A stretch of 64,000 nucleotides of DNA, from contig RPQH01000006.1 in NCBI GenBank assembly GCA_003820375.1, positions 8,861 through 72,860 of the forward strand, given 5' to 3'. The notes under the pieces are model-generated. The model was not told where the DNA came from. It worked only from the letters and a program-made list of their open reading frames with translations, and made no database searches. The translations under genes and the position numbers were made by a program. This stretch comes from Ignavibacteriota bacterium. GTDB lineage: Bacteria > Bacteroidota > Ignavibacteria > Tepidaquicellales > OLB5. This document shows, piece after piece, positions 40,380 to 64,000 of this stretch. Numbering within the stretch: the stretch's first letter is position 1; each line of letters begins with the position of its first letter.

Positions 40380-40399
40380 CCTTAAAATTAAATTTTAAT

Positions 40400-41173: not shown

Positions 41174-41193
41174 TATATATTTCTAATTAATAA

Positions 41194-44796: not shown

Positions 44797-44811
44797 CAAA
44801 AAACGACAATA

Positions 44812-45215: not shown

Positions 45216-45803
45216 CTACATAATCTCTCTGGCTTTTATTTTTGGTTTTGCAGATTTTCTTCCCCATATAGCTACACCATAATGATCTGAAAAGTGAATA
45301 GTTTTATCGTTGGGTCCGTATGATTCTTTATCATACCACCTTGCATCAAGCTCTTTAATTTTTATGTAACCTATGGTTCTGTTAAGTGAAGGATCTTCAA
45401 AATAAATGTTATCTTTATCGTATCCGATAGCAACCAGCCAATGTCCGTTTTTACAATCTTTTTTCCGTAATTCATAGCTGCGTTTATCGCCCCATGCCTG
45501 AACCATTATCATAACAGTTTTCCTGGCATCAATACATCTTTTTAACCTGCTTATAGTCATTCTTCGGTATTCTTTATATTTTAATCCTATTTTCCTGACT
45601 GCATTAATTATCTGGTATGGGTCTGAGCCCGAATCATCCAGGTTCATCAATTCTGAAACAAATTTTTCATTTACCGGGATATCACTGTAATAATTTATTA
45701 TGGATACTAAAGCGGCTGCACCGCATGAATAATCAGACTCCTGATATACATTAGGTACAGGAATTTTGATCTTTGTAATTGGGATACTTTTTATTTTAAT
45801 CAT
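45216..45803 (-). CDS. papain-like cysteine peptidase, C39-like
   Basis: 195 aa. 'QESDYSCGAAALVSIINYY' (catalytic-Cys block typical of Peptidase_C39-like domains) and 'NGHWLVAIGYD' (His block). It is the last gene of the injection-system operon. Confidence 0.6.
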   Translation of the reverse strand: MIKIKSIPITKIKIPVPNVYQESDYSCGAAALVSIINYYSDIPVNEKFVSELMNLDDSGSDPYQIINAVRKIGLKYKEYRRMTISRLKRCIDARKTVMIMVQAWGDKRSYELRKKDCKNGHWLVAIGYDKDNIYFEDPSLNRTIGYIKIKELDARWYDKESYGPNDKTIHFSDHYGVAIWGRKSAKPKIKAREIM

Positions 45804-45829
45804 ACTATTTTTTAAGTGAACTAACTTGT

Positions 45830-47170
45830 TTAAAAGGATTTTTCTTCCTTTTGAAATTCCTTGCCGATTCCATTCAGTAAGGTTTGAAGTTTTATTTTTT
45901 TCTCTTTAACGGCAAAAGTCCTGATTGAAGCGTATTGCATTACATTAACTATCATCGCACCGGTTAGTTCATATTTAATGGCTATCTGCTCTAAATTAAT
46001 TTCTTCATCAAGCTTAAGTTGGAAAGGTATGCATTTATTCCAGAGCTGTAAACGGTCATTGGCGTCGGGTTTTGGGAAATGTACTATTGTATTAAATCTT
46101 CTTGTAAATGCTTCATCTATGTTTGATTTAAAATTAGATGCAAGTATTATCAAGCCCTGGAAGTCTTCCACTTTTTGAAGAAGGTAAGAAACTTCCTGGT
46201 TGGCATATTTATCATGTGCATTTGATACATTTGTGCGTTTGGCAAATAATGCATCAGCTTCATCAAAAAATAATATCCATTCCTTATTCGTTGCTTTATC
46301 AAAAACCTTATTTAGATTTTTTTCTGTTTCACCGATATATTTTGAAACAACTAAGGACAGGTCAATACGGTAAACCGGTTTATTGAATTCTTTTCCGAGC
46401 AGTGAAGCAGTAAGTGTTTTACCTGTACCGGGCGGACCATAAAATAATACCCTGTATCCGGGTTTAATTTTAGGAGAAAGATTTTTATCAGAATACAGCT
46501 TATCGTGATGTTCGAGCCAGTATTTGATATCACAAAGAAGGTCTGAAGTTTGCGTGTGTATTATAAGGTCTTTCCATTCCATTCTTGTTGTGAGCAGCTT
46601 AGCGGGGAAATCAGGACTGAAGGACGGACCGGGCATATTTCCTGTCAAGAAGAATTCTATCCATTCGGGAGCAAGCACCAACCTCCCACTCATAGCAGGT
46701 TCACCTTCCTTCATACTCTCGAGCCATAGGATACCATTTTTATGGAAGAAATGATTTTGAGAAAAGTATTGTTGAACCTCAATCCTTTTTTCAATATCAT
46801 TTCCTGCCAAAATAAACTGAACCGTTTCGCCTGTTGGCAGCATACCGCGATGATTACCGCTTTTAACACCACCGAACTCGGGAAAATCCCCTCCATCAGG
46901 TAAAAATTCCTGGATGATTGAATCAAAATAACCTGGAATAATATTTGGTATTAAAGCAAGCAGAAAAATAATTTTTTCATTTGAATCAAGTTCAAAACTA
47001 TCTATGTGAATGGAGTGTTCTTTAATAAAATAATTATTGTTAAAAATGTAATGCTCAGAATGATTTTCATTTTGTGCTAATTGAAAGTAATCTGCAAGCC
47101 TGTTCTTAATAATGCTTTTAAAGAGTTCTAATAATTGTGGTATGTTTTTATTCATGTATATTGTTTGCAT
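45830..47170 (-). CDS. eCIS-associated AAA+ ATPase (Afp15/Pvc15-like)
   Basis: 446 aa. A non-AAA N-terminal domain, then 'VLFYGPPGTGKT' (Walker A) and 'ILFFDEADALF' (Walker B). Its context is inside a contractile-injection locus. Confidence 0.8.
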   Translation of the reverse strand: MQTIYMNKNIPQLLELFKSIIKNRLADYFQLAQNENHSEHYIFNNNYFIKEHSIHIDSFELDSNEKIIFLLALIPNIIPGYFDSIIQEFLPDGGDFPEFGGVKSGNHRGMLPTGETVQFILAGNDIEKRIEVQQYFSQNHFFHKNGILWLESMKEGEPAMSGRLVLAPEWIEFFLTGNMPGPSFSPDFPAKLLTTRMEWKDLIIHTQTSDLLCDIKYWLEHHDKLYSDKNLSPKIKPGYRVLFYGPPGTGKTLTASLLGKEFNKPVYRIDLSLVVSKYIGETEKNLNKVFDKATNKEWILFFDEADALFAKRTNVSNAHDKYANQEVSYLLQKVEDFQGLIILASNFKSNIDEAFTRRFNTIVHFPKPDANDRLQLWNKCIPFQLKLDEEINLEQIAIKYELTGAMIVNVMQYASIRTFAVKEKKIKLQTLLNGIGKEFQKEEKSF

Positions 47171-47309
47171 ATAAATTATTTAGCCTTAATAATTTTAGGT
47201 TTATATAGAATGTAATTTTTTTGAAATCTTGATTTTTCACTTTTCTTTGATTAGTGACCGTTCTTTCATAATTTATGTAAGTAATAAAAAATAATAATTC
47301 TTGCATTAA

Positions 47310-47867
47310 CTATTTTGAAAATAGGATCAATGGTTTTGGATTTAAAAGTTTAGCTGTGCAAGTATCTATATCTGCACCGTCGTTTACTGTATATTTTAAC
47401 TCAACTTTATGCTTTGTGAAAATTGCACCACGATCCTTATATTTTTCCTTGGTAATTACTCCACTACCTTCGATTGTGAAATTGCTTACTTTACATAAAT
47501 CAATGGTGATAGTATCATTGGTTACACTTCCATATACCTTTTGACGGATACCATAAAAATTATCAAAACAAATCTTTGAACCTTCGTTCAAGCATGAAAC
47601 AACTACTTTATATGTAGAAGATCCATTTAAAGTGCTGTTTTCAAAACAAGTCAGTGGTCCCGTGACTTTTTCGCAAGGATTTTGCGGAATATTTTCGGAA
47701 TCTGCCTTTTCTTCTGCTTCCTGTTCATAAATATCATTTGGCTGATTTATTGTCAGCTTTGGCTGGAAAAATAATGAACTGCCATTATTCTTTTTGGCTT
47801 TTGAGAATAACTGCCCATAATTTTTTTGAGTTTTAAAAGAACCTATATGCTCAAAAATTGTGTTCAA
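47310..47867 (-). CDS. small Cys-containing protein carrying only the shared N-terminal leader motif (candidate eCIS cargo)
   Basis: 185 aa. Residues 33-53 read FFQPKLTINQPNDIYEQEAEE, followed by a beta-rich region of about 130 aa with 6 Cys. No DUF4157 core and no HExxH. Confidence 0.55.
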   Translation of the reverse strand: MNTIFEHIGSFKTQKNYGQLFSKAKKNNGSSLFFQPKLTINQPNDIYEQEAEEKADSENIPQNPCEKVTGPLTCFENSTLNGSSTYKVVVSCLNEGSKICFDNFYGIRQKVYGSVTNDTITIDLCKVSNFTIEGSGVITKEKYKDRGAIFTKHKVELKYTVNDGADIDTCTAKLLNPKPLILFSK

Positions 47868-47906
47868 ATATTTAAGCGGTCATACATGTTTAACTTTTTT
47901 GTTGTT

Positions 47907-49031
47907 TTATTTGCACTTTGAAGCATCACCTGATCCATAACCAAAGCATGACTTTTCACAAGCATCTGCTAAATTACCATGCCCAAATAAACGCCATTCT
48001 GTCAAATGAACTATCTCATGTAAAATTGTTGATGCAAGAGGACCACATAAATTATTATTCAGAGCATTAGGATAAATATTTACAGTTTGTGTCAAATATC
48101 TAGAAGCCATACCACAATCATCTCCTGATTGCTCACAATCAATGTTTAATCCATCAAATTCATTCAATACTTCGTCCTTTAAAGAATCGCTTCTAATGCA
48201 ATTACTATAAAACACCTTATTAAATGCGAGTTTTACAGCAGAAATTACATTGTCTTTTACATATGGATTCTTTTCACATTCATTATATGTAACATTGAAT
48301 GAATATAATTTAGTATGTAATGGTTGGGTAGGAACTGTGGGATTTGATAAGGAACGCCGGTAATCGCGATTAAGCAATCCACCATATCCTCCGCCCTGTC
48401 CTAATGGTGTAATAAGTTGGCGTTGTAGATACTCTAAAGGTTTATTAGTTTGCTGCACAACATGTGTCAACTCGTGTCCTATCAGCTTTTTCCCGGTATT
48501 AGTCTCAGGTGCATACTGCTTCTCACCAAACACTATATTATTACCTGAAGTATATGCCAGTGCATTAATACTTTGTGCAGATTTCTCTGCTTCTGAACCT
48601 GTATGTACCCTCACATTAGAAAAATCATATCCAAATCTTGGCTCAAAAAAACTGCGTGTGGATGAGTCAAGTGATTTACCTGATGATGAATTTAATACAT
48701 CATGTACAATTTGCGGAGCTGTTGATGCTTCAATGCTTCCAGCTTCTTTTCTCTGCAGTTTTTCTTTTTCCTCTTTACACAGATTACATTTTCTCTGAAT
48801 AGAACTATTTGCAGGTTTAAAGAAAGTATTTCTATTAACATCTTTATCTGTCATTCTCATTACTTTATCAGCCATTGCATCTGCTTCCTGCTCATAAATG
48901 TCATTAGGTTGACTTACTTTTAGCTTGGGCTGAAAAAACGAAGTATTATCTATACTCCTGTTATTTTTAGAGCATTTTAAACAACATTTTTTTGGATCAA
49001 CTGGTACTAATATTTTAGTTGCAACTTGCAT
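47907..49031 (-). CDS. DUF4157 ('eCIS core domain') metalloprotease-like protein with a second C-terminal HExxH domain (candidate effector)
   Basis: 374 aa. Leader FFQPKLKVSQPNDIYEQEAD. DUF4157-type block 'SGKSLDSSTRSFFEPRFGYDFSNVRVHTG..A..SAQSINALAYTSGNNIVFG...GKKLIGHELTHVVQQ'. C-terminal Cys-rich domain with 'ILHEIVHLTEW'. Confidence 0.8.
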   Translation of the reverse strand: MQVATKILVPVDPKKCCLKCSKNNRSIDNTSFFQPKLKVSQPNDIYEQEADAMADKVMRMTDKDVNRNTFFKPANSSIQRKCNLCKEEKEKLQRKEAGSIEASTAPQIVHDVLNSSSGKSLDSSTRSFFEPRFGYDFSNVRVHTGSEAEKSAQSINALAYTSGNNIVFGEKQYAPETNTGKKLIGHELTHVVQQTNKPLEYLQRQLITPLGQGGGYGGLLNRDYRRSLSNPTVPTQPLHTKLYSFNVTYNECEKNPYVKDNVISAVKLAFNKVFYSNCIRSDSLKDEVLNEFDGLNIDCEQSGDDCGMASRYLTQTVNIYPNALNNNLCGPLASTILHEIVHLTEWRLFGHGNLADACEKSCFGYGSGDASKCK

Positions 49032-49115
49032 AAGTTTTAAAACCTTACTAAAATTTCTTATTTTAGATTGTCAATTATTATTGTGATGAATAAGTATATT
49101 AAATCACATAAAAAA

Positions 49116-50279
49116 TTATATCACTCCGAATGAAATTTCAGGAAGTATTGTAATATTATCTAAGTTTACTCCCGGTATATCCATTTCATTTGTATAAATA
49201 TAATTCGCAATTAAATTATTGTTAGCATCAAAAAATGCCTGATCATAATACCAGGGTGCTACTATTGTTAATACGTTTGGTCCCTTTCCTTGAAAAGAAA
49301 CTGCTAATAGCTCATTATGTAAAGCATTATATTTATATTTTCCGTACCAATTATGAACATTAACGGTTTTTCCCCTTATCCTTTCTTTCATAGTGATTCC
49401 TACATAACCTCTTGCAAATCCTGAAGATGCTCCAAAAATCAAAGAAGCTAATTGTGATAATCCCAACCTCTTCCCTAATACCGTTGTTGCAACTCCAGCA
49501 AGTGCTGAAACTAAACCTGTACCAATAGCATCTCTTTTCCAATCAGTATTAAAATTTTTTACTGAACTTAAATCAACATTTGCATATTGAATTAAGCACG
49601 TTGAGTCATACGAGGCTATACGAATAAAAGGATTATACCAATTTACTGCTTCGTCCCCACAAGATCTAAAAATGGCATTAACAACTACTTTATTCTGCTG
49701 TAAAACATGTGTCAATTCATGAGCAATCAATTTCTTCCCAGTATTTGTTTCTGGTGCATACTGCCTATCCCCAAACACTATGTTATTTCCAGATGTATAA
49801 GCTAGTGCATTAATTGATTGTGCAGACTTTGCAGCTTCAGAACCTGTATGTACTTTTACATTAGAGAAATTATATCCAAATCTTGGCTCAAAAAAACTGC
49901 GTGTAGACGAATCAAGTGATTTACCTGATGATGAACTCAATACGTCATGCACTATTTGCGGAGCTGTTGTTGATTCACTGCTGCCTGATTCTTTCCTTTG
50001 CAGCTTTTCTTTTTCTTCCTTACATAAATTGCATTTCCTTTGTATTGAATTACCGGAAGGTTTAAAGAAAGTATTTTGATTATTAACATCTTTATCTGTC
50101 ATCCTCATCACTTTATCAGCCATTAAGTCTGCTTCCTGCTCATAAATGTCATTAGGTTGATTTACCTGTAGCTTCGGCTGAAAAAAATATGGATTACTAT
50201 TCTCTTTTGTGCGAGAGAATAATATTGAATTATTCTTGCTTGATTTTTCAGGATCTATGTGTTTAGTTACAGTTTCCAT
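49116..50279 (-). CDS. DUF4157 ('eCIS core domain') protein with an unrelated C-terminal domain (candidate effector)
   Basis: 387 aa. Residues 32-195 are nearly identical to the 47907-49031 product, including 'LIAHELTHVLQQ'. The C-terminal 190 aa or so are unrelated and contain a hydrophobic Gly/Ala-rich stretch (GTGLVSALAGVATTVLG...LIFGASSGFA). Confidence 0.8.
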   Translation of the reverse strand: METVTKHIDPEKSSKNNSILFSRTKENSNPYFFQPKLQVNQPNDIYEQEADLMADKVMRMTDKDVNNQNTFFKPSGNSIQRKCNLCKEEKEKLQRKESGSSESTTAPQIVHDVLSSSSGKSLDSSTRSFFEPRFGYNFSNVKVHTGSEAAKSAQSINALAYTSGNNIVFGDRQYAPETNTGKKLIAHELTHVLQQNKVVVNAIFRSCGDEAVNWYNPFIRIASYDSTCLIQYANVDLSSVKNFNTDWKRDAIGTGLVSALAGVATTVLGKRLGLSQLASLIFGASSGFARGYVGITMKERIRGKTVNVHNWYGKYKYNALHNELLAVSFQGKGPNVLTIVAPWYYDQAFFDANNNLIANYIYTNEMDIPGVNLDNITILPEISFGVI

Positions 50280-50338
50280 TTTTCTATTGTCTACCTTTAT
50301 TTTATAAATTTCAGGTGATTACAACAAATATTTTTATT

Positions 50339-50641
50339 TTATTTCCCGGCTTTTGCCATCAGCCAGCACATAATTATCCATTGGAAAGCACTAAACCAGG
50401 CAATAACCAGGGCTGTTAAAAAATAATCAAGCAGCCACCAGAATTCGAATAATTTCAACCGGTATATTGCAGTTAATGCAAAAGCCACCCAGAATCCCAG
50501 ACAATAACCGCAGTTTAGTAGCGAACCGATAAAAGTATTTTTACTTATAAACCATTCCCGTAAAGTTTTAAATAACTGTGATTCAGCTATTGTAAAGGAT
50601 ATTGCAGCATTAACAAATGAAATCAGAATTATTTCATTCAT
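50339..50641 (-). CDS. small integral membrane protein (DUF1360-like)
   Basis: 100 aa with three hydrophobic segments. 'LLNCGYCLGFWVAFAL' resembles the CxxC-W block of DUF1360 proteins. Confidence 0.45.
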   Translation of the reverse strand: MNEIILISFVNAAISFTIAESQLFKTLREWFISKNTFIGSLLNCGYCLGFWVAFALTAIYRLKLFEFWWLLDYFLTALVIAWFSAFQWIIMCWLMAKAGK

Positions 50642-50870
50642 TATAAATCATGTATATTTTTAAATGTCGTCAGCAGCCGGTGGAACAGTGAGCAACCGGT
50701 CTTAACATATATTTTTTTATCTGTATTTTAGTTCTCATTATTAAACGTCTTCCTTTCTTGTTAAATTTCTTAATTTTTGTGACCTAGGGGAATATTAGTA
50801 TATTAAAAAATAAAATTTCTAAAAACAAAATAATATCAAAAAATAGATTATGCAAAATGTATTTCTAGAC

Positions 50871-52337
50871 TTACCATTCAACAATTATATGTTTTTTCAT
50901 CCAAGGTAATTTTATATAAGAAAATCCCCAAGGCATTTTATCAATCAATATATCCCATCCTTTTTTTTCAACCTGAAGCAGCCAGTGATCATCTAAAAAT
51001 GATAATTTTCCATTTCTTTTGAGGAACGAATCTCTCAATCCGCTAGCTGTTGTATTTTTTAATGCTTTCCAATGCCCTATTACTGATAGAAGTAAGTCAT
51101 TTGTTTCGTTTTTTTCAAAATCACTTAATTTAATTACTGCAGGTAACGAGTTGTCAACTTCATATCCGCAGATTATCTTATTCAGTAACAGATCGAACTC
51201 CGGATACTCCTCCACTCCTGTAATTAAGTATTGCGTAAGTGCAATTGCTCTTTGCTGTAATTCAATATTTTGCCATTCGTTTTTTTCAGTATATCCACAA
51301 TTTTCGAAAAAGAGTGGTAAGAAAGAATGTAATATTACTAAACCACTATTTGAGATATACCAGCTATGCTCATCGCTCGATGTCTTACTCTGCTTTTCAT
51401 GGGCTTTGTTTTTTCCAAAATCAGCTGTTGTCAAATCTTTTTTCCCGGTTGTAATTCTGTGTTCCTGAATGTATTTAGAGCTTTTTTTGATAACATCTGC
51501 TGTTTCTTTACTGAGTTTATTTGAATTATTTTCAGTGTATAAAATAATCTGCTCTATTTCCTGCAAAGAAAGGTTGGAGATAATGTTCTGACCAAACGCC
51601 TGTTTAATTTCTGTTTGAACATCCTCTTTATTTTCCAGCTTATCACTCAACAGCTCGAAAATTTCTATAGCAGTCTTAAAAATTAACCCGGTTATTTTTG
51701 TATCACTATATTTCAAATATCTTAATATTTTTTTCCAATCGGATAAAGTTTTTATCTCAATTTTATTATCAAAAAGTCTCAAAATAAACTCCTCAACTAT
51801 ATTGTCTCCAAATTGGAAAATAAATCTATCACGAACTTTTTGCTCAGATTTAAATAGTGTGAAAAGTTTGTTAAAAAAACCTTCATCATGTTTTTCAATT
51901 ACCTTAATAATCAATTTCTGTAATTCAGTAATATCTATATTAGATCTACTCCATGGCAAATCTCCTGTTTTGAGAAAATGTAAGATAGTATGTTCATCAT
52001 TTAACTTCTGCGCAACGAATTTAATATTAGCTATAGGATTAAGCATATTCGACGTGCAGGAAATTTTATCAAGATAGCGTTCAAATTCATAAATGACCTT
52101 ATCAACTAATCCATTCTTCCAGTTAGAATAATTAATTACTCCTGCGTCAATTTCCAATTTTTCTATTTGAATAATATTTTCGCCGAAGTTTTTCCTATTA
52201 AATAAATTTTCTATTGCCGGAATTAAAACTTGTTTGCATAAATCTGCCAATTCATTTTGAAATGAAAAAGCATCTATAGAATTTTGCATTTCTACTTCTA
52301 AAATTTCTTTACCAATTTTATGAACCTGAACCGTCAT
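50871..52337 (-). CDS. contractile-injection-system tape-measure-like protein (Afp14 position)
   Basis: 488 aa. The N-terminal pattern 'ILEVEM.....AF..Q.EL........L.PA.E.....K.......IQIEKLEIDAGVI' matches my recollection of proteins annotated as CIS tape measure. Overlaps the upstream gene by 4 nt. The assignment rests partly on position. Confidence 0.5.
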   Translation of the reverse strand: MTVQVHKIGKEILEVEMQNSIDAFSFQNELADLCKQVLIPAIENLFNRKNFGENIIQIEKLEIDAGVINYSNWKNGLVDKVIYEFERYLDKISCTSNMLNPIANIKFVAQKLNDEHTILHFLKTGDLPWSRSNIDITELQKLIIKVIEKHDEGFFNKLFTLFKSEQKVRDRFIFQFGDNIVEEFILRLFDNKIEIKTLSDWKKILRYLKYSDTKITGLIFKTAIEIFELLSDKLENKEDVQTEIKQAFGQNIISNLSLQEIEQIILYTENNSNKLSKETADVIKKSSKYIQEHRITTGKKDLTTADFGKNKAHEKQSKTSSDEHSWYISNSGLVILHSFLPLFFENCGYTEKNEWQNIELQQRAIALTQYLITGVEEYPEFDLLLNKIICGYEVDNSLPAVIKLSDFEKNETNDLLLSVIGHWKALKNTTASGLRDSFLKRNGKLSFLDDHWLLQVEKKGWDILIDKMPWGFSYIKLPWMKKHIIVEW

Positions 52338-55300: not shown

Positions 55301-56278
55301 AAAAACCTTATTCTTGAATTCATAATATGCATTTAATATATCGTCAATAAAATCATAGAAATATTGAATTAAAACAGGTTGTGAACTGATAATTTTATCT
55401 CTTAAACTTTTAAATTGTTCGAAAACCTGACTGAATGGATTATTAGGTTCATCTTTTAACAGATAATAATAATTTACATAACAATAGTTCAAAACTTCAG
55501 CAATGCCTTTAAGTTTTGCATCATCTACCAGCCCGGCGAACGCCTGCAAGACATCATCAGCAGATTTAAGATCCTGGTCAGGCACGTTATATCTCTGCAA
55601 TTCGATATGATGCAGTGAGGGACTAACGGAGGATTTAATATCGGGAAGAGGTTTCTCATACTGTTTTTTTAAACTGTTTAAAATTGTTTTCTTTACTAAT
55701 AATGCTTTTACATCAAAATCCATTCTGCTTCCCTTATCATTACAATCATTATTATCGCAATTTTTTAAATTTACTTCTTCTGTTTCAAGGAAAAGGACTA
55801 CCGCGTATTTATCAAGATTCAGTTCTGAAATTATTGAAGCAGATTTTTTTTCATCAGTGTTTAGATTATCAAATTCCTCAGATGTAATCAGTTGAAATAT
55901 CTTTCCTTTATATATATCATTATAACTATCATTGACTTTTTCTTTATAAAAAGGAACAGCGGTATTATCATTATCCCGGCATGTGCAAATAAGATTTAGG
56001 TGTTCCGGAAAGCTGCGGGAATTATAGGGCATATAATGCCGGAATTCTGTATTGCAGAATGTCATAATAAATCCTTGAGAGGTTATCCCGCATCCTTTTG
56101 AAATCTTTATTACATCATTACCTGCTGTAATTTCCAGACCGCAGACAATTCCCATTCCTATGATTTTATTTTTCGTCAGACGGTCCTGTTGTTCCAAATA
56201 ATTTATTAGTGTATTTAAGTGACGGTCACTTAATACCTGGTTAGGTTCAAAAACAGGAAATGTATTGATAATATCCAT
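52334..56278 (-). CDS. large eCIS structural protein (Afp13 position) with C-terminal PKD/Ig-like domains; possible target-recognition component
   Basis: 1314 aa. Its N-terminus, 'FPVFEPNQVLSDRHLNTLINYLEQQDRL...GMGIVCGLEI', seems to me common in eCIS loci. The C-terminal 'PKANFAYKVEK...ISLINNSTD...YEWYF' is PKD-like. Confidence 0.5.
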   Translation of the reverse strand: MDIINTFPVFEPNQVLSDRHLNTLINYLEQQDRLTKNKIIGMGIVCGLEITAGNDVIKISKGCGITSQGFIMTFCNTEFRHYMPYNSRSFPEHLNLICTCRDNDNTAVPFYKEKVNDSYNDIYKGKIFQLITSEEFDNLNTDEKKSASIISELNLDKYAVVLFLETEEVNLKNCDNNDCNDKGSRMDFDVKALLVKKTILNSLKKQYEKPLPDIKSSVSPSLHHIELQRYNVPDQDLKSADDVLQAFAGLVDDAKLKGIAEVLNYCYVNYYYLLKDEPNNPFSQVFEQFKSLRDKIISSQPVLIQYFYDFIDDILNAYYEFKNKVFHVTSWCCSDEMRFPLHLMLGEASVNTNPFIKSKYREYFIYTPLYNNQEEKLEEVRLLFTRIRLLIQEVSFDSIADFEKKFVKITPSRNGYTYLSDRCIPYYYNTVDPGNELYRYWNYDKIKRGNERFNLSYYSSIYCTAPNIVSPLLYDLERFNFFRIEGHIGKYISTALNVVKSLQLQFNLPFETAALSADYIGALVKGEEPKCVIEDLESDYRTLITEFICKIHDAYSFVANIKYEPQISYVFNPPVLNSDTSTAKSESDPSAAKENIDIFIFHSMNNALNFKVNKPYISSMVNEYQALKNYQKGNTFERLFRQTQETTIGKYYSENLKEVFENPVNLSNISNDRLKLYHYFFDFIDNVEDLIKELTEHELAEINITLIKSMYAKLSETINFNHRLINDFYIPLIMSKTSVQPLNEEEQGLLNIFVKNIQLLNQSCFIERLESLKNEYIRRTAQYRLAKNFINYFRKHPGLEHKAGVPKGGTFILVYHEERRNRLIDPGTLYINKELGNLLLTNFHALLKPEVKPDEMEFNTRLTQIATLYKDPDIYLKLKDAMNNMMDDCKELPEEKKKKIIDIIEKPPRESRFELTDGMVIADFYIPYVCCSDCQPVAYILQETHKEEAIKPTLEIDKETICSDSKIGIKLQTDPKEGGSFLVDDNSAKDENIRYENENFYFIPGNLIPGTHKIAFKNNSGISDTKTITIVPKPKANFAYKVEKTDNEKVEISLINNSTDTIESASYEWYFKNKIFSRSIAPENFKFKANETGNVIQLVVKNRECEDKYEEEIKFKLPVEKLTIMKCINQEIFVLEPDNLKPVNILKSEAEIIDTIKVKIDLVKTYKKEQYSYLINYTLPSVKEKEVTLIILSPNADFNIEIKEITDIRNTTTREGSWQNSYLMLSAKNKYATGFNWNIIQGKIKLTFYTKDIEVDFVKNKLTPPSGKMPINVELEIINDIDEKCNSAVKYTISDKIYKNKKNTGMTFDNHFIA

Positions 56279-56280
56279 TT

Positions 56281-59200
56281 TTATAGTTTATTAAATGTTC
56301 CTAAAATTGTTTTACCAAGCAATAAGGGATTACTACTTTCTTTGTTTTCATCACAATTATGTAAGGTCGCTAAAATGTATTCACTATGGAGATTTTTAAG
56401 TATTTCCAATATAGCATTATTAGCGTCTCTGAATTTACCTTCTTTATCCAGGTCTGCTGTATCAGAATAATAATCAGCTATTGATTCAAGCCAGTTTTTA
56501 TATCGTACTTCAAACTCCCGAAGCATTTCATTACTTAGCCAGCATATTTTTAACATTACATGTGCTGGAGCTTCTTCCCGTATCTTATTTTCAAAATATT
56601 CTCTGAATGCCATGCTGTCAAAGTGCCCGGGCCAATATGGCATTATCACGGATATGCGGTATGAATAGGGATCTGCATCACATATACATTCACAATTATG
56701 AAGACAAACTTCCATTAAATCGAATGCTGGTTTACGGGGGCGTAATAATATATGTTCAATTAAATGAAGTCCAACTGGATCATTACATTCTCTTTTAAAT
56801 TCTTCTGTAAATTTTTTGATATCATTATTGGCGTCTTCTTCATTCGTGTAAGTTTTTTCGCTGGTTAATATGTTTGCGAGTTTAAAATTTTTATTGTTAT
56901 TATCCCATGTGTAATTGTCAGAATTTTTTCCAAGAATAACAGCGTCCAGTGCTTCTTTCCTGGCATTTTCTTTATTTTCATATTTTCCGGAAAGCATTTT
57001 TATTCCATCCAATGATGTGATTGAAAAAGAGTAGTAACATTTTAAAACTTCCTTTTCATTTTCATCTACGCTTTCTTCGTTACAATATATTTCAATATTC
57101 TTAATACAATACAAAAATCTCCTTGTGTAATCATTAATACCTGTCAGCAAACTGATTCGCCTTTCAAGTCCGGAAACATTATCTGTGTCCCATATCCCGG
57201 ATCTATCTATTGTAAAGTCATTATTTTGCGGAAGGTAATTAAAGCTCTTGCTCCGGGAACTGCTAACCTGGTCATATATTTTCAATGTACGTATCTTCGC
57301 TGCTAGTAATTCAGCAGGGTCAATATTTTCTTCTGTTTTCTCTTTATAATTAATTCTATACATCATCAATGCATAATCACTGAATGATTCGGAAAAACGC
57401 GCTAACAAGTGATCAAGGAAACGGCTGCGTCTTTCTTCAAAAAGATCCTTTGATTCGTATAAAATTTGCCATTTGTTTTTTGGCTCATGAACGGAATCCG
57501 GATTGTTTATTATTTGCTCTAGCAAAGCATTTCCATTTACAGTTTTATAAATATGCTTAACTTCTTTTATTCCACTGAGAAATTGTGCATAATAAGTATT
57601 TTTGATTTCTTCGACTGAAAATAACCTATGAGAGTGAGTTAATTGTGAAAAAAAGTCAGCAAGTAATTGTTCAAAAAACATCAAGTACGCTTTTAACTGT
57701 CTTTGACTGGCAATTCTTTGAGCAGTTACGGGAGTAGTTAACCCATATTCCCCGGTACCGTAAGTAGGAGGTAAATCGTATTGAACAGGATAGTAGCTTT
57801 CTGTATCTCTTTTTTTACCGATTGGAACCGGAATATCATCCTGTAATCCTGATAACTTAGCACGTGAACGTTGTGCATGAAGGAGCAATATGGTATCCTT
57901 TACTTCATCATAACGTGCAATAAAAGGAAACTGGTTTTTGAATAAAAGTATCTTTGACCTGTCTTTACTAAGGACCGGTTTGCACATAGGAGAAATATTC
58001 ATGCACCACTTTTTACCTGTATAATTTTTCATGGGCATTCCATCTTTGCCATATTTAGTCATTGTAAAATTCCTTATGGCAACAACTCCTTCGATATCCA
58101 TCAATAAATTAATAATATCCGATGTAATAATTTTTGAACGCAGTTGTGTTTCTTCTAGCTGAGTGTTTTCGATAAAACCATGTTTCAAAACAACTCCGTT
58201 AAAAATTCCATCAACTGGTACTTTTTTCTCAATTAGTTCTTTAAGTGAATAAAAACCTACGTTTGGGTTTAGATAATTTTCAACAATAAAAAATATTTCC
58301 GCTTGAATTTTATCAATATCGGTATCCGGCTTAGCATCAACATCAAAACAGAAGGCGATTTTCTCATCTTCAATTGTAGTTACTGAGGTAAAATCTTCAC
58401 ATAAGTTACGGTGTTCATGAAGGATCTTGATAGCACTTTGAATAATTTGTCTTGCTTTCCTGATCTTATTAAAATACTTTTCAAAAATACCAGCAACAAA
58501 CTGTTTATCATTGAACATTTTTTGCACATCATCAACTGTTACATTTTTTTCTTCCGGTTTTAAGGGCATTGTAATATTAAACTCTTTAACAGAATTGTTA
58601 GTGAGCTTTAAAGATTTACATTTCCAATGATTTTCACTTTCCTCTATAATTACCGATAATATATTTACCTTGTCTTTAGCATTTTCGGCAAAGCTAAAAT
58701 CTGCATCCTTCCATGAAGGAAGTTCAATTGAAAACAAAAATTCTCCCTGGGAAATATTTCCGTTAGCAGGATTTTCAATAATTATTTCACCGTTATTAAG
58801 ATCTCCAAACCCATCTGTATATTCAAGGTCAATCAGTACTTTGTATAAACCGGAAATATATAGCGGCAAACCTGTATTGTTATAGGTTAATTTATCTTTT
58901 TTGCAATCAGCATAAATATGTACTTCGTTAACCGGCAAGGGATTTTTATTATCGTCATACCAGACTTTATCTGCTATCAGCCATGCATTATGTATTCCAT
59001 CCAGATCTATCAATAATTTCCTGTAATCATTTATTGTCAGGGGATTATTTGTCAGAATTCTTTTCGCAGTGAAAAAAGTTTGATTATCAACAATATTTCC
59101 ATCTTCTTTGGTTAGTAGATCATTGATATCAAAACCACACCTGTAACCAAGTTCGCTTATTGCATAACATAATACTTCTAGAATGGTGATACCTGGGTCA

Positions 59201-59337
59201 TGAGAATTGAAGTCGGTCCAGAACTCCGAACCCAGATTCTCTATATAATTAATTCCTTCCTTACGCAAAAAATAATAATCCTGCGAAGGAGGAAGAGTAC
59301 TATTCTTTTCTATTATTAATTTTTCATCCATTAGCAA
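56281..59337 (-). CDS. baseplate wedge protein (Afp12/Cis12 position)
   Basis: 1018 aa. N-terminal 'FWTDFNSHDPGITILEVLCYAISELGYR' is typical of baseplate-assembly (gpJ/gpI-like) proteins. Overlaps the upstream gene by 7 nt. Confidence 0.55.
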   Translation of the reverse strand: MLMDEKLIIEKNSTLPPSQDYYFLRKEGINYIENLGSEFWTDFNSHDPGITILEVLCYAISELGYRCGFDINDLLTKEDGNIVDNQTFFTAKRILTNNPLTINDYRKLLIDLDGIHNAWLIADKVWYDDNKNPLPVNEVHIYADCKKDKLTYNNTGLPLYISGLYKVLIDLEYTDGFGDLNNGEIIIENPANGNISQGEFLFSIELPSWKDADFSFAENAKDKVNILSVIIEESENHWKCKSLKLTNNSVKEFNITMPLKPEEKNVTVDDVQKMFNDKQFVAGIFEKYFNKIRKARQIIQSAIKILHEHRNLCEDFTSVTTIEDEKIAFCFDVDAKPDTDIDKIQAEIFFIVENYLNPNVGFYSLKELIEKKVPVDGIFNGVVLKHGFIENTQLEETQLRSKIITSDIINLLMDIEGVVAIRNFTMTKYGKDGMPMKNYTGKKWCMNISPMCKPVLSKDRSKILLFKNQFPFIARYDEVKDTILLLHAQRSRAKLSGLQDDIPVPIGKKRDTESYYPVQYDLPPTYGTGEYGLTTPVTAQRIASQRQLKAYLMFFEQLLADFFSQLTHSHRLFSVEEIKNTYYAQFLSGIKEVKHIYKTVNGNALLEQIINNPDSVHEPKNKWQILYESKDLFEERRSRFLDHLLARFSESFSDYALMMYRINYKEKTEENIDPAELLAAKIRTLKIYDQVSSSRSKSFNYLPQNNDFTIDRSGIWDTDNVSGLERRISLLTGINDYTRRFLYCIKNIEIYCNEESVDENEKEVLKCYYSFSITSLDGIKMLSGKYENKENARKEALDAVILGKNSDNYTWDNNNKNFKLANILTSEKTYTNEEDANNDIKKFTEEFKRECNDPVGLHLIEHILLRPRKPAFDLMEVCLHNCECICDADPYSYRISVIMPYWPGHFDSMAFREYFENKIREEAPAHVMLKICWLSNEMLREFEVRYKNWLESIADYYSDTADLDKEGKFRDANNAILEILKNLHSEYILATLHNCDENKESSNPLLLGKTILGTFNKL

Positions 59338-62300
59338 TTAGTAAGTGGCTCAATTATATGTTTGGTTTTTGTTTCTTCGTTAAAATAAGAAATTAGTACT
59401 GAACGGGAGCTGGAAGCAATTGCTTCCTCAATATCCCGCTTTTCCTCCAGATGATTTACCCCATTGCGGTTTATAATATGATGCATTTTAAAACATGCAA
59501 TGTAATTAACATAAGGCCTTTCTTCAACAAAATTTAAAATTGAACTTTTGACAATTTTCCCATTAAATGAAATTTCATTACCTTCATCATATGCCCAGGG
59601 ACAAAGAAATTTTTCTATTTCAATATTAAGTAATTGCAGGTAATAAGATTCATCCAGGTTATCATAAAATTTCACTTTAAAATCAAACTGGATCTCTTCA
59701 AATTGAGGATTTCTGACATGAAGCTTTATAAATGGAGAAGTAATTGATTGCAAATATTTTTCTATTTTAATCAGCATACCTATTGGTGTACAAGGTCGTA
59801 AAGGATCAACCTTAGTTTTGTTTCTTAAATCAGGAATAGGAATGATCGTCACATGTCCCGGAAGATTTTCACAAAATATTTCTTCTTCCTGCTTTAAATA
59901 AAAACCGGAATGATTAAGACATTTAACTTTGTATATATCTGGATATTTTTCAAGTATAATATGTTCATAATCCCAGATAGAAATTGCCCTCTGTTTATGT
60001 CGCAGCCGTTCACTGGTCCTGATGTAGAAATGTTCGTCGCTCTCTTTTGTTCTTCCACCATAAGAATCAAAGGGCTGGGTAATATTTTTTATTGCAGAAT
60101 CACTTATTAGTAATTTAGAAATGGCTTTTGAAGGGAGTACTTGCCTGAATTCAACGTGTTTAGATTCATCTTGTGCTAATTCAACTTTAGCTGCCTGTGC
60201 TGTTATTAATATCATTTTACATACTGCATCTGTACTTTTCTTTACGGCTGCTTTTATCCAATGAAGGTTATTTTCAAATGCTGTGGTTTGATTGCTTATA
60301 TCATACGGAAGTGATATTGTAACCACACCGGATTGAGTAAAGTTTTGAGTCCTGTCTATTATGAATTGTTTTTCAAATGGCTTCCAGAAATGATGTCCGG
60401 AAAGATAATACCATTCAACATTTTCCATAATTTTTAATGGATTTGAACTGCCTTCAGATACCTGAAATAAAATATTGACAACTGTGTTACTTGCTGCATT
60501 TTCAAGTCCTATAAACAATTCACCACTATTAATAATGTCCGGCAGCAGTGTGAATTTTTCAGTTGATTCTGTTCCCTGGATATCAGGTACTAACTGATAA
60601 TAGCCAAATGGGGTAAAATGATAAATATGATTGTTCTCGTTATCTGCTTTATTCAATGAGATATTTGCAGTTGCAGCATAATTTATTGAAAAGTCATTAA
60701 GAATAATTTCTTTTGCTGTCGGTATAGACGATAAGTTTACCTTGTAAACATTTTGGTCATTTAAACTAATTGTAGTACGGTTAATTTCGTTAACAACATT
60801 TTGAAGATGCGTTGTTAATGAATAATTATTATCAGCTAACTGCAGTTGTATAAATCCATCCAGTGATGTAGACTGAAGAGCTTCGTTTTTCTCAAAATTA
60901 ATTTTTGAAGGAATGAATGACACAGGAAAAATAGTTTTAGGTGATGAAAGCCTAAAATCATTCTTCCATTTTTGTTCTCTCAGATAATATACATTTGTTG
61001 ATAGAGCCGGAGATTTGTAGTTTTTCCAGGCAAAATTAAATTCTATCCAGTTTAAAGTTTTCTGGAAAGCTTCTCTGCTTCCAATATTAAAACGGGCATC
61101 TGCATCTGGTAAATCTCCAAATGGCTTGAAAGGTTTTGAAGCATCAATCGGACCGGAATTATTGCTCAGCATCAAATCCTTTATACCATTCACCTGTACC
61201 GAAATTTCTACTGATGATATTTTTTGATTACAAATTAAGGTATATGGTATTGCATTTTTGTCATCCTGGTTTAATATAAATTTTGCAAAAGGTAATGAAA
61301 CGTTCAGTTTTTCCTTATGAATTTTTTCTGAATACGGAACTACCGGAGGATCGCCCGGATTTAAAATAAATTTGAATTCAAGTGTCTTTGCTGACTGTAT
61401 CTTCACATTCAATCCATTTACTTTGTGCCAGTCTTTTTTTCCGGTTAATTTTACTTTAAAGCAGTCCAGTTTGACACCATTCAATAATTGATTAATTTCA
61501 TTTTCGAACTTAATTGATACCGTTATTATACGTTCACCTTCATTTAAATATAAAATATTGGATGCAATTCCAAAACCTGCTTCTGCATTACCTGCTTCAC
61601 GTGTATCTCCAAATGTGTACCAGCTATTATCTGCTGACATAATTTTAGCTCCCTGCCCGTCATCTGAATCTGCAATTTGTGATGCTATCAAAATATCTTT
61701 TGTATCATGCTTTATCTGCAGTGAATGTATTTTGCTGACTTTAGCTTTGTTAATGACAATATCTTCAGTAAGAGAATAGAATATTTCTTTTCCTGTTATA
61801 TCCTTTCCGCCTTTGAATAATGTATTTTTTTTCAAAAGATGTTGATTCTTTTGTTTCTGCAATTCAAATATCAGGTGTGCAAAATCAGGTTCTGGTTTTT
61901 GATTTTGAAGCCGGAGAACATCTTTATAATAAAAATCAAGATGCCTTTTTGAGTACGTATTTAAATGATCCTGAGAATAACGAAAGAGCTTTATAAATGT
62001 AAGAAATAATGTATAATGCGGTGTATGTTTTGGAAAATCTTTCAGGGTTTGGATAAATAACTCTTCAGCTTTTGTAACAAAAAATGAAATACCATAAAAT
62101 AAATTTTCTACCTGTGAGTTAAAGAGATTATGATTTATAATATAAATAATTTTTTCCTTTAAAACAGGAAATTCCGGAACAGTGAATGAGAATTCCAGGG
62201 GTTGGTTTGACTTCCACATTTCCGGCAGAGATTCAAAATCTGAAGAGTGAAACGAATTAACAGGTATCGGTGCATTATCTTCATCAATAACTGTAATCGA

Positions 62301-62828
62301 TTCATCAATAAGATTTAGCGTCGTTTTTATATAATCATAAAACCTGGTCTTTATCGTCATTATACTCTCTGAGAGTTTATTCTGAATAGTGACATTCAAC
62401 AGTTCTTTATATGAAAATTCATCCGGAATAAACCGGTACTGTTCATCAATCAGGTTCACCATTGAAAATATTAAATCAAACAGGAATTTAAATTGTTTCT
62501 TTGATTCTTCTTCAGAAGTGGATGTACTCTTAATCTTCTTGTAAAGAAGCTTTTGGTAATCGTAAATTGTACGAACTTCTATTTTTGACAATGTAGCCAG
62601 AGCTACACTAACATCCATTTTCATCAAATCTTCCCAGTCGCCGGAAAGATTATTATACTTGTCATAATAATTCAGGTAAGAAGCATATTTTTTCGCAAAT
62701 AATATCAGGTCAGCTTCATTTCGCTCATCAACATGAACATAACCGGGCAGAAGAGCTGCTATTACTCTATTTGTCTGGTTCAATCCCGAACGCTGAAGAG
62801 GTTTTTTATCTTTACAACTTTTACTCAT
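59331..62828 (-). CDS. baseplate wedge protein, baseplate-J/gp6-like (Afp11/Cis11 position)
   Basis: 1165 aa. N-terminal '...QRSGLNQTNRVIAALLPGYVHVDERNEADLILFAKKYA'. Near the C-terminus, 'RHKQRAISIWDYEHIILEKYPDIYKVKCL' resembles the conserved baseplate-J block. Overlaps gp25 by 4 nt. Confidence 0.6.
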   Translation of the reverse strand: MSKSCKDKKPLQRSGLNQTNRVIAALLPGYVHVDERNEADLILFAKKYASYLNYYDKYNNLSGDWEDLMKMDVSVALATLSKIEVRTIYDYQKLLYKKIKSTSTSEEESKKQFKFLFDLIFSMVNLIDEQYRFIPDEFSYKELLNVTIQNKLSESIMTIKTRFYDYIKTTLNLIDESITVIDEDNAPIPVNSFHSSDFESLPEMWKSNQPLEFSFTVPEFPVLKEKIIYIINHNLFNSQVENLFYGISFFVTKAEELFIQTLKDFPKHTPHYTLFLTFIKLFRYSQDHLNTYSKRHLDFYYKDVLRLQNQKPEPDFAHLIFELQKQKNQHLLKKNTLFKGGKDITGKEIFYSLTEDIVINKAKVSKIHSLQIKHDTKDILIASQIADSDDGQGAKIMSADNSWYTFGDTREAGNAEAGFGIASNILYLNEGERIITVSIKFENEINQLLNGVKLDCFKVKLTGKKDWHKVNGLNVKIQSAKTLEFKFILNPGDPPVVPYSEKIHKEKLNVSLPFAKFILNQDDKNAIPYTLICNQKISSVEISVQVNGIKDLMLSNNSGPIDASKPFKPFGDLPDADARFNIGSREAFQKTLNWIEFNFAWKNYKSPALSTNVYYLREQKWKNDFRLSSPKTIFPVSFIPSKINFEKNEALQSTSLDGFIQLQLADNNYSLTTHLQNVVNEINRTTISLNDQNVYKVNLSSIPTAKEIILNDFSINYAATANISLNKADNENNHIYHFTPFGYYQLVPDIQGTESTEKFTLLPDIINSGELFIGLENAASNTVVNILFQVSEGSSNPLKIMENVEWYYLSGHHFWKPFEKQFIIDRTQNFTQSGVVTISLPYDISNQTTAFENNLHWIKAAVKKSTDAVCKMILITAQAAKVELAQDESKHVEFRQVLPSKAISKLLISDSAIKNITQPFDSYGGRTKESDEHFYIRTSERLRHKQRAISIWDYEHIILEKYPDIYKVKCLNHSGFYLKQEEEIFCENLPGHVTIIPIPDLRNKTKVDPLRPCTPIGMLIKIEKYLQSITSPFIKLHVRNPQFEEIQFDFKVKFYDNLDESYYLQLLNIEIEKFLCPWAYDEGNEISFNGKIVKSSILNFVEERPYVNYIACFKMHHIINRNGVNHLEEKRDIEEAIASSSRSVLISYFNEETKTKHIIEPLTNC

Positions 62829-63244
62829 TTTATAATATCACTGCCTTCATTTTTGTAAAAAGGAAATACATAATTGTAACGTGTATTTTTACTTTGTATT
62901 GTGTAGTCAATACTTATGAGCACAATCCCTTGCAGTTCATTGCTTTCATCCAACTCTACTCCATTCAATTTAATACGTGGTTCATATAAATTAATTGTGG
63001 TTTTTACAAGGTCTTTTATATAAGTTTTGAATGTCGTAGAAAGAGATTCAAAAACAAGTTCATCCAGATTACAGCCATAATCAGGGCACATTACTCTTTC
63101 TCCTGGTCTTGTAGTAAGTAAAATATGCAAACTGCTTTCAATATCCTCCTCATCGCTCAGCATTTTTACATTTTTAGTATCTTTGTTGAATTCAGGAGGA
63201 AAGCTCCACCCTGTGCCAAGAAAGGATTTATGACCGTTTATCAT
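62825..63244 (-). CDS. GPW/gp25-family baseplate protein (Afp9/TssE-like)
   Basis: 139 aa. 'LGTGWSFP', 'SLHILLTTRPGERVMCPDYGCNLDELVFE' and 'YEPRI' are the classic gp25 pattern. Confidence 0.85.
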   Translation of the reverse strand: MINGHKSFLGTGWSFPPEFNKDTKNVKMLSDEEDIESSLHILLTTRPGERVMCPDYGCNLDELVFESLSTTFKTYIKDLVKTTINLYEPRIKLNGVELDESNELQGIVLISIDYTIQSKNTRYNYVFPFYKNEGSDIIK

Positions 63245-63352
63245 AATGTTTTATTGTATAATATTGTCTTCAAAAAATTATTCCATTTAATATTATTTGT
63301 CAGTTTTTAGCCGCTTCTTAAATAGTTTTAGATTAATTGTAATTATGTTTGT

Positions 63353-63643
63353 TTAACCTCCGATAATTACAGTTGGACATCCGGATACAATGCTTCCACC
63401 ATGCGCCGTGGAGTCTCCCATTCGGGCTGCCGGCTTATTATTTATCAAAACCGTTGATGAACCGGCAGCTATTGTATCGGTAGGACCGGTACAAACGCAT
63501 GTATCACCTGCAGTAGCTGCCGGCAAATTCCCGATTAATACTGTTACTGAGCCCGGAGGTAAAATTACTCCTCCTACATGTGGAACGTATCCATTTACCA
63601 TCGGGCAAACATGACTATCTGATATTCTTGCAGCTAAAGGCAT
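63353..63643 (-). CDS. PAAR-domain spike-tip protein (Afp10-like)
   Basis: 96 aa. 'GNLPAATAGDTCVCTGP', 'NNKPAARMGDSTAHGG' and 'PTVIIGG'. Confidence 0.9.
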   Translation of the reverse strand: MPLAARISDSHVCPMVNGYVPHVGGVILPPGSVTVLIGNLPAATAGDTCVCTGPTDTIAAGSSTVLINNKPAARMGDSTAHGGSIVSGCPTVIIGG

Positions 63644-63707
63644 TGTTTAGATTTATTATTTATTTTTTATATGAATATCTATTCTTCTGCATACCGGTAT
63701 TTTCTTC

Positions 63708-64000
63708 TTAATTAATTTTTACTATTCCACCCTTAATTTCAGTGATTCCGCTTCCATCTATTTTTATAGATGCACTTTTAAATTCAGCACTGCCGGGACC
63801 TGCTTTTAATTCAGAACCGCTTGCTGATAAAGAAAACTGTGAAGAAGGTTTCAGTGTAATATTTACACCTTCAATTGTTATATCTGACCCTGCTTTTATT
63901 TTTAAACTTGATGCACTTTCAATAGTCACCCCGCTGGATTCCATCTTAATACTATTACCACTTTCATCTTCGATTTTTATTATGCTTCCATTATCATCGA
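63708..64000 (-). CDS. VgrG/gp5-like spike protein, C-terminal part (5' end lies beyond the window)
   Basis: The reading frame stays open to the window edge; the ORF-track Met at 63944 is internal. It shows a repetitive beta-helix-like pattern (ITIEG.NITLK, IKIDGSGITEIKGG.VKIN) and sits immediately upstream of PAAR. Confidence 0.6.
   Translation of the reverse strand, partial: DDNGSIIKIEDESGNSIKMESSGVTIESASSLKIKAGSDITIEGVNITLKPSSQFSLSASGSELKAGPGSAEFKSASIKIDGSGITEIKGGIVKIN

Follow-up and report, generated by a model that had tools for sequence, protein, structure and literature searches.

A probable AlgoCIS-type contractile injection system operon with three cargo genes in an uncultured Ignavibacteria bacterium

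Introduction

Which kind of contractile machine is encoded on the minus strand at positions 45216-64000 of a 64,000-nucleotide stretch of Ignavibacteriota DNA (assembly GCA_003820375.1, contig RPQH01000006.1, positions 8,861 to 72,860 of the forward strand)? This whole stretch, hereafter the window, had been described in a first-pass annotation made from the sequence alone, which saw in the region the distal half of an extracellular contractile injection system (eCIS), or of a system resembling subtype iv of the type VI secretion systems (T6SSiv), organised like Serratia Afp and Photorhabdus PVC. The core of that reading was supported by our analyses. The operon very probably encodes a clade Ib contractile injection system (CIS) of the AlgoCIS type, carried by an uncultured Ignavibacteria bacterium. 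Judging from sequence matches, clade Ib, which comprises AlgoCIS, MAC, T6SSiv and the thylakoid-anchored system of Anabaena (tCIS), would be a better template for this locus than Afp or PVC.

Results

Gene content and organisation of the operon

The minus strand between 45216 and 64000 contains a tight gene array, in which every gene listed earlier was found in its place. The region is the downstream two-thirds of a single chromosomal operon, with the following features (lengths in amino acids, aa):

63711-64000, minus strand: VgrG/Cis8 spike protein, C-terminal beta-helix end (frame open at 63711-63998; the full gene encodes 596 aa)
63353-63643, minus strand: PAAR spike tip (Cis10), 96 aa (PAAR_motif PF05488, E 1.7e-24)
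62825-63244, minus strand: gp25-like baseplate/sheath adaptor (Cis9), 139 aa (GPW_gp25 PF04965, E 1.9e-25)
59331-62828, minus strand: baseplate wedge protein Cis11/Alg11, 1165 aa (phmmer against the PDB)
56281-59337, minus strand: baseplate wedge protein Cis12/Alg12, 1018 aa from a TTG start or 1016 aa from an ATG start at 59331 (phmmer against the PDB)
52334-56278, minus strand: Alg19/Cis19-type tail fibre or "crown" protein, 1314 aa (phmmer against the PDB)
50871-52337, minus strand: CIS tape measure protein (Cis14), 488 aa (CIS_TMP PF19268, E 1.4e-111, full length)
50339-50641, minus strand: DUF1360-like protein with three hydrophobic segments, 100 aa (PF07098, 21.9 bits, E 1.8e-4)
49116-50279, minus strand: cargo A, 387 aa (eCIS_core/DUF4157 PF13699, E 2.9e-30)
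47907-49031, minus strand: cargo B, 374 aa (eCIS_core/DUF4157 PF13699, E 8.4e-32)
47310-47867, minus strand: cargo C, 185 aa, with a leader and no DUF4157 (leader identity to cargo A and B)
45830-47170, minus strand: AAA+ ATPase of the Cis15/Alg15 type, 446 aa (AAA PF00004, E 4.3e-29)
45216-45803, minus strand: stand-alone C39-like cysteine peptidase, 195 aa (PF03412, E 1.3e-11; PF13529, E 3.6e-10)
44722-44797, plus strand: tRNA-Pro (CGG), found with ARAGORN, convergent with the operon end

Profile and PDB searches bore out the minus-strand order proposed at first, from the partial VgrG through PAAR, gp25, two baseplate proteins, the 1314-aa protein, tape measure and cargo to the ATPase and the C39-like peptidase. 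What had been called an effector block consists of three cargo genes and one 100-aa membrane protein. The profile matches expected for gp25 and PAAR were obtained, and the one expected for the baseplate-J family was not significant (Baseplate_J, E 0.004). The 4-nt gene overlaps at 52334/52337 and 62825/62828 were correct, and the 7 nt given for the third, at 59331/59337, hold for the TTG start and become 1 nt under the ATG start of the Joint Genome Institute (JGI) gene call.

Baseplate, fibre and spike proteins compared with solved structures

The three large proteins (1165, 1018 and 1314 aa) returned no significant Pfam match and were compared with solved CIS structures by phmmer searches of the PDB. 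The 1165-aa protein matched All3317/Cis11 of Anabaena (E 1.5e-136) and Alg11 of AlgoCIS (E 2.7e-122), followed by Pvc11 (E 1.2e-41) and Afp11 (E 1e-31). The match extends over Alg11 residues 101-1003 and takes in cage domain IV, which occupies residues 278-643 (PMC8894135); on this alignment the protein is a Cis11/Alg11 homologue that probably carries the spike-cage insertion. The 1018-aa protein matched All3315/Cis12 (E 1.4e-128) and Alg12 (E 1.8e-119), and also Pvc12 and Afp12 (E 8e-24), the best matched stretch of All3315 being its residues 186-618.

The 1314-aa protein matched All3314/Cis19 (E 5.7e-60) and the AlgoCIS chain 9wt0_a, named "PKD domain-containing protein" (E 4.3e-50), both with its N-terminal 600 aa or so. 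In the baseplate of the Anabaena system, Cis19 (All3314) forms the trimeric "crown", which has flexible fibre-like tips (PMC8894136), and Alg19 is the downward-pointing tail fibre of AlgoCIS, built of Ig-like folds (PMC8894135). The variable C-terminal third of the 1314-aa fibre is probably its receptor-binding part; a relaxed Pfam search of the fibre C-terminus gave nothing significant, the best match being Big_13 at E 0.013. The gene had been recognised correctly, and the PKD tail ascribed to it was not found, that label occurring on homologues only; the orthologue in a related Ignavibacteria locus (L087) shows a weak PKD_4 match. Neither the fibre nor the wedge proteins contain a strong hydrophobic segment.

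Genes beyond the end of the window

The window ends within the spike gene, and the sheath, tube and cap genes had been expected past position 64000. A public contig (Ga0209819_10000029 of JGI metagenome 3300027722; sequence L086) is 100% identical to window positions 46281-64000 (17,720 bases) and runs 5.3 kb past position 64000. Outward from the window it encodes, in order, the rest of VgrG, CIS_tube/Cis7 (233 aa), DUF5908/Cis6 (56 aa), a pair of gp19 tube proteins of 163 and 143 aa, and a sheath of 651 aa (Phage_sheath_1C), so the expectation proved right for sheath and tube and was extended by Cis7 and Cis6. The full 596-aa VgrG lies at L086 3834-5624, bears Phage_base_V and has the AlgoCIS spike as its best PDB match (7aef_q, E 2.4e-174). 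Similarly, the best solved match of the sheath was Alg2 of AlgoCIS (E 2.4e-131). This JGI contig was read from position 2478 on, and the sequence read holds one long sheath gene. In the closest syntenic relative, an Ignavibacteria metagenome-assembled genome (L002; gp25 76% identical), a Pvc16_N cap gene opens the operon. Sheath, tubes, Cis7, VgrG, PAAR and gp25 come after it, arranged as at the window locus.

A further sequence (L083) was 100% identical to the window across 20,588 bases, and the C39 protein together with the 1016-aa Cis12 is recorded on contig Ga0209819_10000029 (45,445 bp) of JGI metagenome 3300027722 and on an 80,683-bp contig. Exact protein look-ups with gp25, PAAR and the 1165-aa protein found no match. 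In a metagenome contig collection, a 52-nt exact search with the window end gave 0 hits and a tape-measure scan returned no relative.

Because contractile phage tails also contain sheath, gp19 tube, gp25, Baseplate_J-like and VgrG/gp5 proteins, the region might be read as a tail module, either of a myovirus prophage or of an R-type tailocin. The best matches are, however, to solved CIS structures, with T4 gp18 reaching only E 7e-6 against the sheath, and the locus carries the CIS markers CIS_TMP, eCIS_core/DUF4157 cargo, the Cis15 AAA+ ATPase, Cis6/DUF5908 and CIS_tube. A scan for capsid, portal, terminase and integrase genes found none; it covered the open reading frames (ORFs) of 120 aa or more at 448-24848, those from about 35.2 kb to 45 kb and the 5.3-kb extension, and all of these were chromosomal or unannotated. 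In view of the CIS-specific markers and of the missing head and packaging genes in the parts scanned, the prophage reading was rejected as extremely improbable.

Probable placement within clade Ib

The operon was provisionally placed in clade Ib by the ranking of its PDB matches, among which AlgoCIS and tCIS stood well above SalCIS, PVC and Afp. The AlgoCIS machine of Algoriphagus machipongonensis (PDB 7adz/7aeb/7aef/9wt0) shares with the window system a single long sheath, the spike, Alg11, Alg12 and the Alg19-type fibre. The numbering of the ALPR1 locus tags gives for AlgoCIS the order alg19, tape-measure gene, cgo1, cgo2 (PMC8894135), and the distal arrangement of alg19, tape measure and DUF4157 cargo is the same at the window locus. 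The cargo plan of Cgo1 and Cgo2 is also shared, and in both systems one cargo has a metalloprotease-like C-terminal domain (CTD). The two differ in that AlgoCIS belongs to a member of the Cytophagia and the window system to Ignavibacteria, and in that the window locus has three cargo genes, one of them without DUF4157, and adds the 100-aa membrane protein and the trailing C39-like peptidase.

The Anabaena sp. PCC 7120 tCIS (PDB 7b5h; PMC8894136) provides the top PDB matches for Cis11, Cis12 and Cis19, and has Cis6 and the Cis19 "crown" protein in common with the window system. It contains, however, a Cis13 with a transmembrane helix, for which the window locus has no gene, and its effector genes lie outside the cluster, whereas the window cargo genes are placed between tape measure and ATPase.

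Afp and PVC, which belong to clade Ia, had served as the template of the first-pass annotation. The comparison holds for the core parts, namely spike, PAAR, gp25, Afp11/12 homologues, tape measure and AAA+ ATPase, and Afp and PVC cargo also bears an N-terminal signal like the window cargo. As the best template it fails, the clade Ib matches being far stronger than those to Afp11, Afp12 and Afp8 (the last at E 4.5e-35). In Afp and PVC, gp25 comes before PAAR, the sheath is made of the Afp2-4 paralogues, the fibre is Afp13, and cap and toxins follow the ATPase, whereas the window locus has PAAR before gp25, one long sheath gene from contig position 2478 on, an Alg19 fibre in place of Afp13 and cargo before the ATPase, and in the relative L002 the cap opens the operon. 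The position of PAAR before gp25, the third large protein and the DUF4157 cargo ahead of the ATPase are accounted for by the clade Ib template. The effector content had been taken as a departure from the model, and this was not sustained: DUF4157 cargo between tape measure and ATPase is the norm in clade Ib.

Relatives of the operon are numerous. In genome contigs, 124 relatives of gp25 were found, the nearest in Ignavibacteria metagenome-assembled genomes (76-78% identity), and at least 7993 homologues of the ATPase were counted at E<=1e-60, mostly from Bacteroidota and Ignavibacteria. The nearest ATPase relatives, like those of gp25, are Ignavibacteria metagenome-assembled genomes, which supports the host assignment. 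The same gene order, with a Pvc16_N cap opening the operon, is present in three Ignavibacteria relatives (L002, L087 and L088), and the VgrG-PAAR-gp25 order recurs in the first of these and in one catalogued cluster.

Cargo proteins and the presumed loading ATPase

In AlgoCIS, Cgo1 and Cgo2 consist of an N-terminal domain (NTD) that is disordered, DUF4157 and a variable CTD and are located in the tube lumen (PMC8894135); the NTD is needed for loading, which the AAA+ protein Alg15 mediates, and DUF4157 can be dispensed with (PROCIS preprint 10.64898/2026.05.27.728243). Cargo A and cargo B have the same layout, a leader in the place of the NTD, then DUF4157 with its HExxH and then a variable CTD, and are encoded beside the tape measure and ATPase genes. 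They are 77% identical in their first 200 residues or so (leader and DUF4157) and unrelated downstream. The shared part constitutes a 516-bp direct repeat of 83% identity (48445-48957 and 49690-50204), a layout that looks suited to toxin-domain swapping by recombination. Cargo C resembles them in its leader, residues 1-56 being 54-62% identical to those of cargo A and B, and continues with a 130-aa CTD; it had no match in Pfam, NCBIfam or PHROG. The leader motif FFQPKLxxNxPxDxYExEAD was present in 11 of 13 cargo-block proteins from three Ignavibacteria loci, including proteins without DUF4157, and recurs in the cargo of L087 and L088.

By analogy with Alg15, the AAA+ ATPase is presumed to act as a cargo-loading unfoldase. 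Its closest orthologues occupy the matching position in the CIS loci L087 and L088. Its start is uncertain, the gene call on another contig beginning 5 codons later (441 aa), and in the JGI annotation an ORF of 52 aa (47150-47308; L083 8498-8656) stands between the genes of cargo C and the ATPase and overlaps the ATPase start.

The CTDs of the window cargo are unrelated to anything in the fetched loci; relaxed Pfam searches with them gave nothing significant and NCBIfam no specific names. The CTD of cargo A, about 190 aa long, belongs to a family with 36 representative clusters among 1.84 billion proteins and stands at the C-terminus in every case; eCIS_core was detected in eight of the ten family members scanned. 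Its AlphaFold2 (AF2) model (pLDDT 84) shows a beta-sheet and a hydrophobic, Gly-rich helical hairpin, and a fold search against the PDB found no match (TM below 0.2). On the basis of this model, cargo A would probably act on membranes by means of the hairpin. The CTD of cargo B is a small, Cys-rich, zincin-like metallopeptidase domain with the motif HEIVHxxE. Eight homologues were found in 5.8 billion proteins, half of them (4/8) with eCIS_core, and the HExxHxxE residues (H, E, H, E) as well as 7 Cys are invariant among them. In the AF2 model, residues 45-179 have a pLDDT above 90, and Foldseek ranked first the toxic zinc endopeptidase AsaP1 (E 1.9e-3, probability 1.0, TMq 0.41-0.44), with further matches to astacins, matrix metalloproteinases and selecase. 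The modelled fold suggests that cargo B probably acts as a zinc metallopeptidase. Both cargo B and its closest homologue have a Gly-Gly-rich linker after DUF4157.

The size of the cargo block varies among the Ignavibacteria loci, with three genes in L087 and seven in L088, the latter including PG_binding_1, CHAP and Aspzincin_M35 domains. The peptidoglycan-binding and CHAP domains in the cargo of related loci hint at an antibacterial role for the group, and bacterial cell walls may be the target of at least some of its systems.

In L088, the closest Ignavibacteriaceae CIS locus (291-9949 and 11403-21353), the block contains fusions of eCIS_core with PG_binding_1 or with Aspzincin_M35, as well as a PG_binding_1+CHAP protein that lacks the leader. 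A defence-type region, made up of an MmeI-like restriction-modification gene and of GmrSD_N, HEPN and DUF433/DUF5615 genes, lies directly downstream of that system.

Mode of action

The three modes of action, as a free eCIS, as a membrane-anchored T6SSiv and as a tCIS, all occur in clade Ib (PMC8894135, PMC8894136). Clusters of the BIS/T6SSiv type have been reported without Alg19 and Cis6 (PMC12210884). Both are present in the window system, which fits an eCIS-type pattern rather than a BIS/T6SSiv-type one. By analogy with AlgoCIS, the operon most likely encodes a released particle with three leader-tagged toxins. The baseplate would assemble round the spike and the tape measure would set the length of tube and sheath, while the ATPase would recognise the disordered leader and thread the cargo into the tube lumen. 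The particle would be released, most likely through lysis, and its Alg19 fibres would then bind the target; finally, contraction of the sheath would push the spike and the cargo-loaded tube into it.

Given that its clade covers all three modes, the machine might instead stay in the cell, anchored to a membrane as in the Amoebophilus T6SSiv or the Anabaena tCIS. The three large proteins do have their top PDB matches in Cis11, Cis12 and Cis19 of the Anabaena tCIS, and a protein with three transmembrane segments is encoded within the operon. Yet the Cis11 and Cis12 genes overlap, so that no Cis13-like gene for a transmembrane helix lies between them. The membrane-contacting extension of All3315 spans residues 610-1100 (PMC8894136), and there is no sign of it in the window protein, as the best All3315 match stops at residue 618. 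The presence of both Alg19 and Cis6 also stands against the BIS/T6SSiv type, and sheath and spike are closest to AlgoCIS. Finally, Ignavibacteria are not known to have thylakoids. On balance we consider membrane anchoring improbable and retain the AlgoCIS-like released particle.

Several observations weigh against this assignment. For the three large proteins of baseplate and fibre, the scores against the thylakoid-anchored system of Anabaena are slightly better than those against AlgoCIS, and sequence does not distinguish the modes of action that occur within clade Ib. As regards the cargo, A has no structural relative and the Foldseek support for B is weak (E about 2e-3, TM about 0.4).

The C39-like peptidase and the 100-aa membrane protein

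The C39-like gene starts 26 bp downstream of the ATPase gene in the same orientation, and no terminator-like site lies between the two. Across 24 homologues, Q21, C27 and H121 of the protein are invariant and D137 is nearly so. Unlike C39 double-glycine leader peptidases, which go with an ABC exporter, fused or paired, the protein stands alone, with no ABC transporter in the locus, and contains no hydrophobic segment, its N-terminus included. A Gly-Gly motif is absent from the N-terminal leaders of all three cargo proteins, and cargo B alone has an internal Gly-rich linker. The protein also gave a weak PHROG match to an endolysin family (E 0.003).

The genes following the ATPase were compared in the closest two Ignavibacteria CIS loci (L087 and L088). 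The C39-like gene is absent from both; these loci end at the ATPase and continue with toxin-antitoxin, restriction or defence genes. Geller et al. record no case of Peptidase_C39 (PF03412) within eCIS operons in their table of Pfam enrichment. The peptidase had been listed as a departure from known systems, and the oddity is real, even as its membership in the machine is uncertain, because homologues sit outside CIS contexts and the two closest loci lack it.

Homologues of 50-59% identity were located in L081 (8115-10597), L084 (4252-10588), L089 and L090, where they are preceded by small unannotated genes and adjoin Endonuclease_NS, PG_binding/CHAP or ABC-transporter genes; none of the four contexts is a CIS. 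The homologue family may serve another toxin or peptide system.

The 100-aa protein has hydrophobic segments at residues 1-19, 41-59 and 73-96 (Kyte-Doolittle), scores 21.9 bits against PF07098, whose cut-off is 21, and matches phrog_781, a family of no assigned function. It has no homologue among 88 fetched loci except on the window's own contig. Its gene lies between those of tape measure and cargo, after a 229-bp gap that holds a promoter-like site (50764-50737).

The peptidase and the 100-aa protein are locus-specific additions, and may be either passengers or of use in cargo maturation or particle release. For the peptidase, a role as a functional accessory, either as a cytoplasmic maturation protease or as a papain-fold lysis enzyme that releases particles, could be argued from its co-oriented gene just past the ATPase, its intact Q/C/H/D catalytic set with a non-hydrophobic N-terminus and the endolysin-family match, as well as from homologues found elsewhere beside toxin-like genes (Endonuclease_NS, CHAP/PG_binding). 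We regard such a role as doubtful: the gene is missing from the two closest Ignavibacteria CIS loci, its homologues examined elsewhere lie in non-CIS contexts, the family is without eCIS occurrence in the table of Geller et al., and AlgoCIS loads its cargo without such a protease. The maturation variant places the cut between the leader/DUF4157 carrier and the toxin domain, e.g. at the GQGGGYGG linker of cargo B, a type of linker also present in the closest homologue of that cargo; cargo A and C have no Gly-Gly linker, which counts against this variant. A still bolder proposal makes the peptidase, perhaps together with the three-segment membrane protein, an undescribed CIS accessory module and the cargo A CTD a new CIS-only membrane-targeting toxin fold. 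There, the peptidase would trim the leader/DUF4157 carrier off the cargo or open the producer cell; we judge this proposal distinctly unlikely.

The tRNA-Pro gene and the chromosomal surroundings

The operon had been described as directly abutting tRNA-Pro. The tRNA gene is indeed near, at 418 bp from the C39 stop codon, and does not abut the operon. Directly after it, a hairpin with a 12-bp stem (44811-44842) and T-runs on both sides is terminator-like on both strands and would serve as terminator for the tRNA as well as for the convergent CIS operon. No ORF is present in the 370 bp from the hairpin to the C39 stop codon.

An accessory island next to this tRNA, as had been put forward, is unsupported by our data, without being refuted. 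No integrase gene occurred among the proteins scanned, no second copy of the tRNA-Pro 3' end was found in the window or in L086, and no tRNA lies near the related loci. The GC content of the CIS region (0.30-0.34) is slightly lower than that of its neighbours (0.34-0.39), and the related loci lie in differing neighbourhoods rich in defence genes. These varied, defence-rich settings are consistent with an accessory element, yet there is no evidence of tRNA-targeted integration.

The annotated rest of the window is chromosomal, with T9SS-sorted proteins (type IX secretion system), a molybdopterin dehydrogenase and a beta-oxidation-like cluster. That cluster, on the plus strand at about 35200-43203, encodes a BcrAD_BadFG/ApbA protein, a thiolase, an alcohol dehydrogenase, enoyl-CoA hydratases and a 3-hydroxyacyl-CoA dehydrogenase fusion, and adjoins an aminotransferase gene and tRNA-Pro. 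Two large plus-strand ORFs at 8820-12077 and 12186-14795 (1085 and 869 aa), without a Pfam match at E<=1e-5, adjoin genes for a CarboxypepD_reg protein and a T9SS-sorted protein. At 15492-18827 lies the gene of a 1111-aa STAND-type regulator with an NPHP3_N NTPase-like N-terminus, TPR repeats and a C-terminal BTAD, followed by that of a BNR/Por_Secre_tail protein.

Discussion

In our search of the literature, no paper was found whose main text mentions contractile injection together with Ignavibacteria. The supplementary data of a 2025 metagenome survey list the GEM genome 3300027722_3 (entry MAG941) as carrying a CIS; it is assigned to the Ignavibacteria, order SJA-28, family OLB5, from freshwater sediment, and its row records Cis1, sheath, Cis5-10, Cis12, Alg19, Cis14, Cis15 and Cis16 as present and Cis13 as absent (PMC12210884). 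Since metagenome id, class and gene content all match, the window locus has probably been catalogued already as 3300027722_3, without individual description, the link being made by these three features only. The catalogue entry does not describe cargo, peptidase or membrane protein.

The operon is an ordinary member of a widespread and structurally solved type of system, whose relatives run into the thousands and for which two structures have been solved. Its value lies in the details, namely a compact set of three cargo genes with one conserved leader, two rare cargo domains found fused to the eCIS core and a co-oriented cysteine peptidase. If expressed, the system would provide a first handle on CIS function in Ignavibacteria, poorly cultured bacteria of sediment and wastewater.

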